Origin: a virus
Taxonomy: Duplodnaviria; Heunggongvirae; Uroviricota; Caudoviricetes
Direction: 5' to 3' (one strand)
DNA: 20,812 bases
Virus record (IMG/VR): IMGVR_UViG_2534681662_000008
Coordinates: 1 to 20,812 of that record
Position 1 is the first letter of the stretch, and the number at the start of each line of letters is the position of its first letter. The notes beneath the pieces were generated by a model, which saw only the letters and a list, made by a program, of their open reading frames with translations, was not told the origin of the DNA and searched no databases. The position numbers and the translations under genes were made by a program. Below, piece by piece: positions 2,744-20,564 of this stretch.

Positions 2744-3136
2744 ATGTCTGAACCCTTATCCGGTTCCGGCACGGCTGCGGCGCTCGGCGGGGCGACGGTG
2801 TACGGGCTGTTTACCGGGACGGATTTCGGGATTGTGTTTGGTGCGTTCGCCGGTGCGTTATTTGTGGCAACGATGCCGCAGGCGCTTTCAGCCTGGCGTG
2901 TGGCGGCGCATTTTCTGGTGTCGTTCATTATCGGCGTGCTGGGGGCAGAGGTTCTGGCGTCCTGGCTGGTAAAGCATACAGGGTTTGACGGTGCACCTGT
3001 CGACGCACTGTGTGCAGTGCTGGTGTCAGTGGTGTCGGTGAAGATTCTGTCGTTCATCCACCAGCAGGATATTGCATCACTGGTGTCCGGTGTGTTCTCC
3101 CGCCTGCGGGGCGGAGGAGGCGGCAATGTTAAGTAA
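2744..3136 (+). CDS. Putative holin (Gly-rich membrane protein with 3 predicted TM helices)
   Basis: ATG 2744 with AGGAGA at 2731-2736; 130 aa. Three hydrophobic segments and a charged C-terminus (SRLRGGGGGNVK). First gene of the lysis cassette, directly upstream of the endolysin. Family not pinned down. Confidence 0.55.
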   Translation: MSEPLSGSGTAAALGGATVYGLFTGTDFGIVFGAFAGALFVATMPQALSAWRVAAHFLVSFIIGVLGAEVLASWLVKHTGFDGAPVDALCAVLVSVVSVKILSFIHQQDIASLVSGVFSRLRGGGGGNVK

Positions 3137-3404
3137 CCTTCCCGGATTGCTGAATGTGGCGTTATGCACGGTTATCGTGCTGACGCTCTTTTTTTATCGT
3201 CGTCGTGACTCCAGACACAAACCGCTGATGTCATGGCTGGCCTGGCTGCTGATGCTGCTGTATGCCTTTGCGCCCCTCAGCTATCTGTGCGGTCGCCCGT
3301 TAGCGGCGAACTGGCTGGCGGTGGGGCTTAATCTGCTGTTCTGCGTGTTGGTGATTCGCGCACGCGGGAACGTTTCAAAAATCTTTGTATTACGAAGGCG
3401 CTGA
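3126..3404 (+). CDS. Second holin or antiholin-like lysis membrane protein (3 predicted TM helices)
   Basis: ATG 3126 with GGAGG at 3113-3117; overlaps the upstream gene by 11 nt; 92 aa. Hydrophobic segments LLNVALCTVIVLTLFFY, LMSWLAWLLMLLYAFAPL and ANWLAVGLNLLFCVLVI, with a basic C-terminal tail. Confidence 0.5.
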   Translation: MLSNLPGLLNVALCTVIVLTLFFYRRRDSRHKPLMSWLAWLLMLLYAFAPLSYLCGRPLAANWLAVGLNLLFCVLVIRARGNVSKIFVLRRR

Positions 3405-3405
3405 T

Positions 3406-3951
3406 ATGAAGTCGAAAGATGAAATTTTTGACGAAGTTCTGGGAAAAGAGGGCGGTTACGTCAATCACCAGGATGATAAAGGCGGACCGACAAAATGGGG
3501 TATTACTGAAAAAGTTGCCCGTGCGCACGGATACCAGGGCGATATGCGTGATCTGACGCGCGGACAGGCGCTGGAAATACTCGAGGCGGACTACTGGTAT
3601 GGACCACGTTTTGACCAGGTGGCAGCGTTATCCCCTGATATTGCCGCAGAGTTGTGTGATACGGGCGTCAACATGGGGCCAGCCGTGGCGTCAAAAATGC
3701 TTCAACGCTGGCTGAACGTTTTCAACCTGCGCGGGAAACTGTATCCGGATATGGATGCAGACGGACGTATCGGGCCGCGTACTCTTAATGCATTACGGGT
3801 ATATCTGAAAAATCGTGGCAGGGATGGAGAGCTGGTAATGCTGACCGCACTGAACTGTACGCAGGGTGACCGCTATCTGGAGCTGGCAGAGAAACGGGAG
3901 GCTAACGAGTCGTTTGTTTACGGCTGGATGAAAGAGCGCGTAGCAGTTTAA
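3406..3951 (+). CDS. Endolysin: GH108-type N-acetylmuramidase domain with a C-terminal peptidoglycan-binding domain
   Basis: ATG 3406 with GAAGG upstream; 181 aa. Contains the GH108 signature EGGYVNHQDDKGGPTKWGIT near the N-terminus, and the C-terminal half fits a PG_binding_3-like domain. Starts 1 nt after the stop of the preceding membrane protein. Confidence 0.85.
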   Translation: MKSKDEIFDEVLGKEGGYVNHQDDKGGPTKWGITEKVARAHGYQGDMRDLTRGQALEILEADYWYGPRFDQVAALSPDIAAELCDTGVNMGPAVASKMLQRWLNVFNLRGKLYPDMDADGRIGPRTLNALRVYLKNRGRDGELVMLTALNCTQGDRYLELAEKREANESFVYGWMKERVAV

Positions 3952-4046
3952 AAACTGACACTGAAGTGCTGAACACCCTCAACTCATGCAGGCTCTTTTT
4001 TGGGGTTACGATGAGCGAAGATAAGGGGGGGCAGCATCAGATAGCA

Positions 4047-4086
4047 AAAACCCCGGCTGCTGGAACAGTCCGGGGTTTTCTGTTTC
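4047..4086 (+). terminator. Strong rho-independent terminator downstream of the endolysin
   Basis: AAAACCCCGG (4047-4056) pairs with CCGGGGTTTT (4070-4079), followed by a TTTCTGTTTCT tract. Confidence 0.65.
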
Positions 4087-4112
4087 TGACCCTGGGTAAG
4101 GCAAAGGAGAAC

Positions 4113-4295
4113 ATGAGGAAGTATAAACTAATTCTGTTGAGGTTGACTATGAAAAACGGCCTTGAATTGAAAGCGCCCGTAACTGATGACATCAGCAGAG
4201 CGGTGGCTTTTGCCATTAAGTGGGTGGCTGTCGGTATCACTGTGTCTCCGATGCTGTATGGGATGGCAAAATTGATCATTGCTGTGAAATCGTAA
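4113..4295 (+). CDS. Small membrane protein (60 aa, C-terminal TM helix), function unknown
   Basis: ATG 4113 with a strong AAGGAG at 4103-4108. MRKYKLILLRLTMKNGLELKAPVTDDISRAVAFAIKWVAVGITVSPMLYGMAKLIIAVKS. An in-frame ATG at 4011 would extend the ORF through the terminator hairpin, which I consider less likely. Confidence 0.45.
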   Translation: MRKYKLILLRLTMKNGLELKAPVTDDISRAVAFAIKWVAVGITVSPMLYGMAKLIIAVKS

Positions 4296-4312
4296 GTGGG
4301 GCAGGGGTAAAT

Positions 4313-4447
4313 ATGTCAGATAGCATTATAAAACTGGCGCGAATTCTCTGTGTGGTTGTTGGCCTTTCATTTTCAGCAATGTTGGTTGCCATTTTCATTT
4401 CCACCACCTGGCGAGTATTGAGCTTATCCGGATTGATTGGTGGATAG
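4313..4447 (+). CDS. Very small single-TM protein (44 aa), function unknown
   Basis: ATG 4313, 18 nt after the previous stop. MSDSIIKLARILCVVVGLSFSAMLVAIFISTTWRVLSLSGLIGG. Weak ribosome-binding site. Coding status rests on tight packing and hydrophobic architecture only. Confidence 0.35.
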   Translation: MSDSIIKLARILCVVVGLSFSAMLVAIFISTTWRVLSLSGLIGG

Positions 4448-4451
4448 TGAG

Positions 4452-4634
4452 ATGAAGCGAAAACACTGGACACACAGAATGCCGCGAACGGCGGCGAAAT
4501 GGGCACTGGTAGCGATACTGGTGCCTTTTTTATTGGTGGGATGCGTCAGCCTGGATAAGGCGCGCCAGCTTTTCGATACAGCTTCTCAGGTCTGCAAAAT
4601 TGTCGACGGTGTCCGGCATTGTATGCAGAACTGA
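4452..4634 (+). CDS. Small predicted lipoprotein (lipobox LLVG-C, mature peptide about 30 aa with 3 further Cys)
   Basis: ATG 4452 (alternative ATG 4479), 5 nt after the previous stop. Basic N-region, hydrophobic core WALVAILVPFLL, lipobox LVGC, mature part CVSLDKARQLFDTASQVCKIVDGVRHCMQN. Not proline-rich like lambda Rz1. Confidence 0.5.
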   Translation: MKRKHWTHRMPRTAAKWALVAILVPFLLVGCVSLDKARQLFDTASQVCKIVDGVRHCMQN

Positions 4635-4805
4635 TCGCCTGTAAGAGCAGAATATTTTGCTGAAAAATGAAGGATGCGTCAGCGTCCGGAAAGCATGAAA
4701 TTCTGTGTTTGTGGCTACTCAATAAAATAAATTCTTTCTTTCGCCGCGAATACTCAAATGTTGATCAGTGCCCGGTGCGGTGACGGGCTTCGATATCAGG
4801 AGACG

Positions 4806-19781: not shown

Positions 19782-20473
19782 ATGCAGGATATTCACAGGA
19801 AACACATCATGAGACGACACGCCTCACTCAGTCAGCCCAGGTGGTGCTCTGGGAAATCGATCTGACAGAGGTCGGTGGTGAACGTTATTTTTTCTGTAAT
19901 GAGCAGAACGAAAAAGGTGAGCCGGTCACCTGGCAGGGGCGACAGTATCAGGCGTATCCCATTCAGGGGACGGATTTGAACTGAACGGCAAGGGCAGTGC
20001 TGCCCGTCCGACACTGACGGTTTCTAACCTGCACGGCATGGTCACCGGGATGGCGGAAGACCTGCAGAGTCTGGTCGGCGGAACGGTGGTCGGCGTAAGG
20101 TTTACGCCCGTTTTCTGGATGCGGTGAACTTCGTCAACGGAAACAGTGACGCCGACCGGAGCAGGAGGTGATCAGCCGCTGGCGCATGAGCAGTGCAGGA
20201 ACTGAGCGCGGTGAGTGCTCTTTTGTACTGTCCACGCCGACGGAAACGGACGGCGCTGTTTTTCCGGGACGTATCATGCTGGCCAACACCTGCACCTGGA
20301 CCTATCGCGGTGATGAGTGCGGTTATCACGGTCCGGCGGTCGCGGATGAATATGATCAGCCGACGTCCGATATCACGAAGGATAAATGCAGCAAATGCCT
20401 GAGCGGCTGTAAGTTTCGCAATAACGTCGGCAACTTTGGCGGCTTCCTTTCCATTAACAAACTTTCGCAGTAA
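19782..20473 (+). pseudogene. L: Minor tail protein L homologue disrupted by multiple single-base frameshifts
   Basis: ATG 19782 with AGGAGG upstream gives MQDI, then a stop after 27 codons. Lambda-L-like sequence continues in shifted frames: SQETHHETTRLTQSAQVVLWEIDLTEVGGERYFFCNEQNEKGEPVTWQGRQYQ, then FELNGKG...TLTVSNLHGMVTGMAEDLQSLVGGTVV, then RRKVYARFLDAVNFVNGNS, and finally an intact FVLSTPTETDGAVFPGRIMLANTCTWTYRGDECGY...KCLSGCKFRNNVGNFGGFLSINKLSQ. Confidence 0.75.
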
Positions 20474-20477
20474 TCCC

Positions 20478-20564
20478 ATGACAGAGACAGAATCAGCGAT
20501 TCTGGCGCACGCCCGGCGATGTGCGCCAGCGGAGTCGTGCGGCTTCGTGGTGAGAACACCGGAG
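20478..20564 (+). pseudogene. K: Tail assembly protein K homologue, 5' fragment only (about 29 codons)
   Basis: ATG 20478 directly after L. MTETESAILAHARRCAPAESCGFVVRTPE matches the lambda K N-terminus (recalled); similarity ends near 20564. Confidence 0.55.

Follow-up and report, generated by a model that had tools for sequence, protein, structure and literature searches.

How a phage of a Gram-negative host breaches the outer membrane when its genome holds no spanin is an open question in phage lysis. About 15% of phages of Gram-negative hosts have no recognizable spanin (bioRxiv 10.1101/515445), and 91 of the 677 genomes in a published spanin census fall into this group (PMC6139136). The question arises again in a stretch of viral DNA of 20,812 nucleotides (nt) (Caudoviricetes; IMG/VR record IMGVR_UViG_2534681662_000008; hereafter the window), a lambdoid late region in which three small open reading frames (ORFs), ORF1, ORF2, and ORF3, lie at positions 4113–4634 between a GH108 endolysin gene and a gene of family phrog_1935. 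We find that ORF3, which encodes a prolipoprotein, is very probably the resident gene of the spanin slot and has no dedicated inner-membrane spanin (i-spanin). Our preferred explanation, to which we assign a probability of about 0.55, is that ORF3 is an orphan lysis lipoprotein, derived from an outer-membrane spanin (o-spanin), that performs the outer-membrane step without a dedicated partner.

The three ORFs are co-oriented on the plus strand after the lysis genes. An earlier note on this DNA had given them 60, 44, and 60 amino acids, sizes that we recover for ORF1 (MRKYKL...; 4113–4295), ORF2 (MSDSII...; 4313–4447), and ORF3 (4452–4634). The tight packing it reported is also seen, although the gaps are 17 and 4 nt and not 18 and 5. 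The strong ribosome-binding site that it assigned to ORF1 can be read directly as a plus-strand Shine-Dalgarno sequence, AAGGAG (4104–4109), 3 nt ahead of the ATG. Matches were found to phrog_1115 (ORF1, 1e-40), phrog_4906 (ORF2, 7e-19), and phrog_7528 (ORF3, 4e-37), all of them families of unknown function. Homologous DNA occurs in 533 of 5426 complete Escherichia coli genomes, and a protein identical to ORF3 has been recorded from E. coli. Presence and purifying selection in relatives had been set beforehand as a check on the trio; the ORFs are conserved, with pairwise ratios of nonsynonymous to synonymous substitution (dN/dS) of 0.39, 0.12, and 0.19, respectively, and all three are real genes under purifying selection. 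A promoter scan found no sigma-70-like site on the plus strand, in line with the earlier remark that the genes have no obvious promoter of their own, but two stable hairpins (T1 and T2, described below) had been missed. Scans of ORF1–ORF3 against Pfam, NCBIfam, and PADLOC gave nothing significant, the sole match being a sub-threshold one to DUF3930 for ORF2, and no PADLOC defense model matched any of the three at E ≤ 1. The statement that none belongs to a nameable family is right as far as these databases go, but a homologue of ORF3 in phage phiP27 is already listed in the census, and the ORF3 leader matches that of an o-spanin of phrog_456.

ORF3 opens with a basic n-region of 16 residues, followed by a hydrophobic h-region and the lipobox LLVG|C31 with Val32 at position +2; the leader reads MKRKHWTHRMPRTAAKW-ALVAILVPFLLVG|C. 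The lipobox is as first described, whereas the mature part, of 29–30 residues, carries two further cysteines (C48 and C57, 8–9 residues apart) where three had been counted. Hydropathy reveals a single hydrophobic segment (residues 14–32) and an amphipathic, polar C-terminal half. The hydrophobic moment (muH) of the mature peptide is 0.55–0.65, and it is near neutral, with a net charge of 0 to +1 and a range of -2 to +2 across the family. In both subfamily alignments the lipobox residues G30 and C31 are invariant, and C31, C48, and C57 are invariant in Escherichia, Salmonella, Citrobacter, Cronobacter, and Yersinia as well as in a distant (Lelliottia-type) subfamily. The mature part and the basic n-region both have a dN/dS of 0.15, the latter with a synonymous divergence (pS) of 0.28. 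Low dN/dS throughout, together with cysteines invariant in both subfamilies, argues that ORF3 is not decaying. One copy with in-frame stops was seen in Escherichia phage GER2 (locus L090, 3480–3690), which has S, R, an ORF1 variant, and intact Rz/Rz1.

A profile search of 1.84 billion representative proteins returned only 21 clusters, all of one small family, and no bridge from ORF3 to any known family. Among these clusters is the second subfamily (...CVSLEKARNWFGVAADVCDTVKKIKDRCNDRK). ORF3 has no Pfam match at E ≤ 1 and does not fall in the Lysis_col family, and none of the PHROGs annotated as "Rz-like spanin" matches it.

The setting of the gene was surveyed by alignment and by an architecture census of 84 loci (80 IMG/VR contigs and four GTDB species representatives), onto which reference proteins were mapped. 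ORF3 always follows one or more holins and an endolysin, which is either the GH108 enzyme or an M15 peptidase of the phiP27 type. It starts about 20 nt past the M15 gene at 35 of the 84 loci and 0–10 nt past the GH108 gene at three, and it overlaps the GH108 stop codon by 4 nt in Yersinia kristensenii and in one Logan contig. Translational coupling is likely, since ORF3 is a co-directional late-operon gene that often abuts or overlaps the endolysin gene. The second subfamily also lies directly after an endolysin (M15_4, GH108, or a CHAP-domain enzyme), with either a two-holin pair or a different single holin. ORF3 accordingly accompanies three endolysin families and two holin systems, and it keeps its slot when holins and endolysins are exchanged. 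Counted over 138 distinct neighborhoods, it comes after a cassette of this kind without exception.

A partner was sought with a rule-based scan for i-spanins, defined as an N-terminal transmembrane domain (TMD) followed by at least 40 polar residues. No credible i-spanin was found in 138 distinct ORF3 neighborhoods; the five matches began at internal start codons of holin genes, of the gene for an upstream membrane protein, or of a terminase gene. Applied to ten positive-control loci, the scan recovered the i-spanin at nine. The 20.8-kb window likewise contains no i-spanin-like ORF.

What the slot holds in related cassettes can be read from seven sister phages with homologous holins: mEp390, HK639, Yersinia vB_YpM_39, Klebsiella ST13-OXA48phi12.2, Salmonella 118970_sal3, Klebsiella Seifer, and Cronobacter ENT39118. 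All seven have an i-spanin directly after the endolysin, plus an overlapped, embedded, or separate o-spanin lipoprotein. Their i-spanins include members of the "Rz-like spanin" families phrog_1026 and phrog_214 (4e-35 to 4e-45), and that of vB_YpM_39 overlaps its GH108 endolysin by 4 nt, the same overlap as that of ORF3 in Y. kristensenii. The earlier placing of the trio "where spanins should be" is thus correct for ORF3, whose slot is occupied by canonical spanins in these cassettes, but not for ORF1 or ORF2.

Compared by BLASTP with the sister-cassette spanins, ORF1–ORF3 gave matches at the level of signal peptides only, and the mature parts are unrelated. The leader of ORF3 (residues 2–33) and the leader of the overlapped o-spanin in 118970_sal3 (MQNSRSHWSHREPRKISKW...LLTG|C; 1e-7) are homologous. 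That protein matches phrog_7528 at 1.4e-4, and its remainder belongs to the phrog_456 "Rz-like spanin" family. Clear homology to a spanin or to Bor had been named as a check, and this leader-only match is what emerged, with no similarity to Bor. Because the leader peptides are homologous, the simplest history would be one in which ORF3 descends from the o-spanin of a sister cassette, the i-spanin having been lost and the mature domain being short and either new or truncated. When the 118970_sal3 o-spanin (L258, 3298–3642) is read from an upstream ATG, its N-terminal extension, MQNSRSHWSHREPRKISKW, is homologous to the ORF3 n-region; an unusually long, basic, conserved n-region is common to the leaders of these different lysis lipoproteins.

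The family has one published entry. Phage phiP27 is catalogued with a "separated" two-component spanin, both subunits of which are singleton families (Kongari et al. 2018, PMC6139136). The o-spanin of this entry (20706–20861, 51 amino acids, mature part 30; PMC6139136) is a homologue of ORF3. The i-spanin of the entry is a 64-residue ORF with a TTG start (20348–20542), and the combined periplasmic length of the pair, 62 residues, is flagged there as the census minimum (PMC6139136). The 64-residue ORF is present at only three of the 84 ORF3 loci, has no PHROG match, and runs antisense to a 90-residue ORF of phrog_36812 (4.8e-19; the stretch concerned is L002, 3154–3683). On these three grounds the published i-spanin is probably a shadow ORF. 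In the GenBank record of phiP27 (AJ298298) the true lipoprotein gene (20679–20861) is unannotated, and L32 (20630–20785) is out of frame with it. A literature search for lone or orphan o-spanins, or for tests of the ORF3 family, found nothing relevant, and the paper on prophages with LT-II genes has no discussion of ORF3. The family has therefore been catalogued but, it seems, never examined, and the partner published for it is probably spurious.

From these observations we infer where ORF3 may act and how. It would be the ancestral fourth gene of a cassette ordered holin, holin, endolysin, ORF3. The product would be exported, lipid-modified at Cys31, and delivered to the outer membrane, a destination suggested by the valine at +2, which leaves it without a Lol-avoidance signal. 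The resulting amphipathic lipopeptide of 29–30 residues with two cysteines would sit on the periplasmic face of the outer membrane and weaken it after the endolysin has removed the wall, as the final step of lysis. Since mature ORF3 cannot bridge the periplasm, it would have to act differently from Rz-Rz1 or T1 gp11, and two routes can be envisaged. In the first, disulfide-linked oligomers of the amphipathic helix would perturb the inner leaflet or a host component of the outer membrane in the style of colicin lysis lipoproteins; in the second, uncleaved ORF3 precursor anchored in the inner membrane would pair with the mature outer-membrane form.

Several points weigh against this explanation. 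A mature part of 29–30 residues is too short to span the periplasm, it is near neutral and hence unlike the cationic disruptin, and no colicin lysis protein, entericidin, or mature o-spanin domain was found to resemble it in sequence. The AlphaFold model, a single long helix of low confidence (pLDDT 70), is uninformative. Most of the loci come from close relatives (Enterobacteriaceae prophages), so that the counts do not represent independent events, and the ORF3 pseudogene of GER2 is one case only. A partner may be encoded far away in the phage genome or supplied by the host. Finally, lysis without spanins can work under laboratory conditions, and phages might dispense with the outer-membrane step altogether, ORF3 doing something else.

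A stronger form of the proposal, which we put forward tentatively and do not think the likelier outcome, is that ORF3 represents a novel class of phage factors for lysis at the outer membrane: a single lipopeptide, some 30 residues long and with a pair of cysteines, would have taken the place of the two-component spanin. It could be a "self-pairing" minimal spanin, in which the unusually long, conserved, highly basic leader would hold uncleaved precursor in the inner membrane, and the amphipathic helix and disulfide bonds would pair it with mature ORF3 in the outer membrane. Alternatively, it could be an outer-membrane permeabilizer resembling the colicin lysis proteins, with the conserved signal peptide itself active.

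This stronger form would also find a use for hairpin T2 and its U-run (4501–4536, plus strand), which occupy codons 17–28 of ORF3, within the signal peptide. T2 has the structure GGCACUGGUA-gcga-UACUGGUGCC plus the U-run and folds at -17.9 kcal/mol (z -4.2), compared with only -9.1 for the antisense strand. Its stem is kept at synonymous sites in all subfamilies, including the Lelliottia and Yersinia homologues with diverged mature parts. Among 30 distinct versions, 12 stem changes preserve pairing and four disrupt it; the majority of the 12 create or remove a G.U pair, a kind that forms on the sense RNA alone. T2 looks like an intrinsic terminator or attenuator within the last lysis gene; as a built-in attenuator it would limit ORF3 to late transcripts antiterminated by Q.

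The region as a whole is a composite of two units and not one module. In megablast comparisons with phage genomes, phages of the PhiR5_2/PhiR12 type, with the gene order S, lysozyme R, ORF1, ORF2, Rz/Rz1, match T1 through ORF2 only (window 4071–4403, ~85%), and the match to phiP27 starts exactly at the first base of ORF3 (window 4452–4800, 95%). All 80 of the ORF1-bearing viral loci are inside lysis cassettes: about 39 have the arrangement S-R-[ORF1-ORF2]-Rz/Rz1 with intact Rz/Rz1 (Stx-type phages), and about 41 the arrangement holin-holin-GH108-[ORF1-ORF2]-ORF3. ORF1/ORF2 are missing, in turn, at about 40 of the 84 ORF3 loci. The parts assort separately, as ORF3 alone, as ORF1 and ORF3 without ORF2, and as ORF1 and ORF2 with Rz/Rz1; the complete trio is found in Cronobacter malonaticus beside an unrelated terminase. 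Between endolysin and ORF3, inserts alternate (ORF1 with ORF2, ORF1 alone, the reverse-strand 90-residue gene of phiP27, or an ORF6N-like gene), and the post-endolysin junction is an insertion hotspot. More broadly, small membrane-peptide genes settle preferentially at the junction between the endolysin gene and the gene for the outer-membrane step, and they do so in lysis cassettes that are unrelated to each other.

ORF1 and ORF2, with T1 at their 5' end, are a portable accessory insert shared by two unrelated lysis cassettes. T1 and the ribosome-binding site accompany ORF1 in every context. The insert would land between the endolysin gene and the gene for the outer-membrane step, to which its 3' end is tightly joined: ORF2 overlaps the start of Rz by 4 nt in PhiR5_2, and a shorter ORF1 variant ends 1–2 nt ahead of Rz in GER2 and of ORF3 in an Stx2k phage. 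Since the insert also sits between lysozyme R and Rz/Rz1, ORF1 and ORF2 are no spanin replacement. ORF2 is a strongly hydrophobic, clearly single-pass membrane peptide, as first described (KD19 hydropathy 2.8), with 19 invariant columns in its alignment and a periplasmic tail of about 14 residues. ORF1 has no N-terminal TMD; in the family alignment its N-terminus is variable, and a C-terminal segment of moderate hydrophobicity (1.75), AFAIKWVAVG...LYGLAKLII, is conserved. No Pfam or NCBIfam holin or antiholin family matched either protein above threshold (DUF3930 matched ORF2 at E 0.031, below the cut-off). The two are probably accessory membrane peptides, expressed late, that adjust lysis or its outer-membrane step; toxin-like or regulatory functions may also be considered.

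Variants of this junction were also observed. PhiR5_1 (L098, 2367–2715) has an ORF2-like gene, a short ORF1-like gene, and a second ORF1 variant, followed by Rz/Rz1, and a gene for 231 amino acids is inserted after R; this deviating order suggests that the peptide genes duplicate and shuffle. Protein P0210, from a single contig of 1.3 kb, resembles a "Rosetta-stone" fusion in which an ORF2-like N-terminus is joined to the C-terminus of ORF1; since PhiR5_1 has these genes unfused, it probably reflects a frameshift, and the fusion was rejected. Between the endolysin gene and T1, E. coli E423 (L004, 3717–3998) and the Stx2k phage (L089, 2473–2754) carry a gene for 93 amino acids (phrog_33497, no assigned function).

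T1, a terminator-like hairpin between the endolysin gene and ORF1 (about 4045–4092; -23 kcal/mol, z -3.1), forms the 5' boundary of the insert. Changes in its inner stem are compensatory or wobble, so that pairing is kept. With an A-tract upstream and a U-tract downstream, and T-runs on both strands, it could act in both directions. Opposite the start of ORF1 the promoter scan found a candidate sigma-70-like promoter on the minus strand (4120–4149), with -35 TAGTCA (4149–4144), an 18-nt spacer, and -10 TATACT (4125–4120). It is conserved in 23 + 7 sequence variants, three of which have TATAAT. A transcript from it would be an antisense RNA of about 70 nt (window 4043–4114) that covers the Shine-Dalgarno sequence and start codon of ORF1 and ends at T1.

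This arrangement invites another reading of ORF1 and ORF2, compatible with our explanation of ORF3, which we consider possible but doubtful: ORF1 would be a toxic small membrane peptide silenced by T1 and the cis-antisense RNA, whose promoter lies within the first 13 codons of ORF1, much as in P22 sar/ant or a type I toxin-antitoxin pair. The hexamers and the 18-nt spacer are kept in 30 of 30 variants, a K3N change produces a perfect TATAAT, and the ORF1v type carries a TGGACA -35; yet just 9 of the 12 promoter positions match, and since the site overlaps conserved codons, coding constraint could account for its conservation. Synonymous diversity is lower in the 5' half of ORF1 (pS 0.040 vs 0.088). 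The T-runs of T1 on both strands would suit an antisense terminator, but its wobble pairs are valid on the plus strand, and in two variants they correspond to A.C mismatches on the minus strand. In the region 4043–4149, a match to Rfam "sar" is full-length though weak, far under threshold (18.8 bits vs 43; E 0.91), and one to the rimP leader is also sub-threshold (E 0.026). Finally, all 80 ORF1 loci lie in lysis cassettes, in contrast to the usual scatter of toxin-antitoxin loci.

For ORF3 itself, a conventional o-spanin with an unrecognized inner-membrane partner (ORF1, ORF2, a holin-like protein, a distant phage gene, or a host protein) seems to us unlikely. The idea draws on the listing of the phiP27 homologue as the o-spanin of a "separated" pair, on the homology of the ORF3 leader to a true o-spanin leader, and on the cysteines, as two periplasmic cysteines in the o-spanin and none in the i-spanin make up the commonest spanin pattern (PMC6139136). 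Yet the periplasmic length of the phiP27 pair is the shortest in that census even with the doubtful i-spanin included, and i-spanin-like ORFs number zero in the 138 neighborhoods and in the window. ORF1 and ORF2 abut the gene for the outer-membrane step, but they are poor candidates for the partner: they are absent from about 40 of the 84 loci, they also occur beside a complete Rz/Rz1 pair, and one offers a periplasmic tail of only about 14 residues while the other has no N-terminal TMD. A holin partner is hard to reconcile with the exchange of holins around an unchanged ORF3 slot.

It is also improbable, in our judgment, that ORF3 is no lysis protein at all but either a decaying o-spanin remnant or a lipoprotein moron, conferring receptor blocking or exclusion like Cor and Llp or serum resistance like Bor. 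Morons are known to occupy the slot after the lysis genes, which holds LT-II toxin genes in Rac-SA53 and the Yersinia locus, and lambda bor is found in much the same area. The mature domain is, moreover, extremely short. ORF3, however, lies on the same strand as the endolysin gene, whose stop codon it abuts or overlaps, and has no promoter of its own; it shows purifying selection and invariant cysteines over six genera and is retained while the surrounding endolysins and holins are swapped; and it has no similarity to the Bor, Cor, or Llp families. Superinfection exclusion or toxicity, offered for the trio in the earlier note, found no positive support in the case of ORF3. That note's further idea of the trio acting jointly as one non-canonical, spanin-equivalent envelope-disruption module is very improbable, because, for all the tight packing in the window and the whole trio beside an unrelated terminase in Cronobacter, the census shows ORF1, ORF2, and ORF3 assorting independently (ORF1/ORF2 missing at nearly half of the ORF3 loci, and ORF1 beside intact Rz/Rz1 at about 39 of 80) and the mosaic junction falls exactly at the ORF3 start codon.

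The remainder of the window is that of a lambdoid late region. A Q antiterminator gene (272–667) is followed by an ORF6N gene and by genes for tRNA-Thr and tRNA-Gly (1834–1987). The lysis genes, all on the plus strand, begin with holin-like protein 1 (2744–3136; Phage_holin_8, PF16931, 1.4e-21; phrog_198 holin), whose true start is probably M25 of the ORF that opens at 2672. Holin-like protein 2 (3126–3404; Phage_holin_3_7, PF05449, 2.9e-21; phrog_217 holin) has three TMDs, and the endolysin (3406–3951) combines GH108 (PF05838, 6e-26) with PG_binding_3 (PF09374, 4e-26). Downstream of ORF3 come the phrog_1935 gene and then Nu1-type and A-type terminase genes. Two terminator-like hairpins (2661–2718) lie within what looks like an N-terminal extension of the 2672 ORF, just ahead of the true start of the first holin gene, and may be Q-dependent tR'-type terminators of the late operon. 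The same ORF opens with a lipobox-like LLTGC, which was rejected, as it has no n-region and the stretch contains terminator-like hairpins ahead of the true holin start.

Cassettes of this family are common in prophages of E. coli, Salmonella, Citrobacter, Cronobacter, and Yersinia, and they are found in the Stx2e phage phiP27, in an Stx2k phage, and in prophages with toxin genes of the LT-II type. LT-II-like A/B genes lie downstream of ORF3 or of the endolysin gene in Y. kristensenii (L091, 6988–8140) and Rac-SA53 (L094, 3416–4556), the latter having the holins and GH108 but no ORF3. Loci with flanking toxins also include one from Cronobacter (L092, 2489–3217), and a pertussis-S1-like gene stands upstream of the holin. 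An E. coli-type holin and ORF3, at 85–94% identity, occur in PP818812.1 (18645–20332), labeled as Actinobacillus phage vB_Apl-pPE4, for which the host label (Actinobacillus pleuropneumoniae) is doubtful.

These cassettes amount to a natural experiment, in which the same holins and endolysins are followed, in the next slot, by either a canonical spanin pair or a lone lipoprotein of 30 residues. The question of spaninless lysis is thereby made directly testable by a standard complementation assay. If ORF3 alone suffices, it would be the smallest known factor for the outer-membrane step, with a mechanism that does without spanning the periplasm, and the census entry of a "two-component spanin" for phiP27 would be corrected.

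Among known systems, ORF3 is like the o-spanins of two-component pairs (lambda Rz1, T4 PseT.2, and the phrog_456 protein of 118970_sal3) in being a small lipoprotein with an outer-membrane signal at the end of the cassette, after the endolysin; it shares a homologous leader with the phrog_456 o-spanin, and its two periplasmic cysteines follow the commonest o-spanin pattern. It differs from them in that no i-spanin gene is adjacent to it, overlaps it, is embedded in it, or lies near it. Its mature part is helical and amphipathic, is not proline-rich, has no similarity to mature o-spanin domains, and could not contribute to a periplasm-spanning complex of normal length. With the unimolecular spanins (u-spanins; T1 gp11) it shares the single gene in the spanin slot and the N-terminal lipoprotein signal, but it lacks a C-terminal TMD and is far too short. 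U-spanins have no periplasmic cysteines in the census (PMC6139136), whereas ORF3 has two that are invariant.

The colicin lysis proteins, or bacteriocin release proteins (BRPs), resemble ORF3 in their very small precursors, in mature lipopeptides of about 30 residues, and in being encoded by the final gene of an induced operon that culminates in permeabilization of the envelope. They have no sequence similarity to ORF3, which, unlike them, is phage-borne and coupled to an endolysin, and they are not known to carry the two-cysteine motif. BRPs cause quasi-lysis and activate the outer-membrane phospholipase A (PMC9517006). The signal peptide of BRPs is itself stable and has a function of its own (van der Wal 1994, 1995, as cited in PMC5727409), a precedent that would explain the conservation of the ORF3 leader.

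Disruptin, gp28 of phage phiKT, is cationic and resembles an antimicrobial peptide, whereas ORF3 has a lipobox and is near neutral. The disruptin is not known to carry a lipoprotein signal. In a "spaninless" phage, this one small protein takes over outer-membrane disruption from the spanins (bioRxiv 10.1101/515445). For ORF1 and ORF2 the comparison, by description only, is with Lcc6 of Shewanella phage LambdaSo, a transmembrane protein of 65 amino acids, unassigned to a family, that is needed for lysis beyond holin, endolysin, and spanin (bioRxiv 10.1101/2024.01.23.576932). Both are cases of small membrane peptides in a lysis region; Lcc6 acts at the holin step, whereas ORF1 and ORF2 adjoin the gene for the outer-membrane step. 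In Lcc6 there is thus an example of a small accessory membrane peptide that is a genuine lysis factor.

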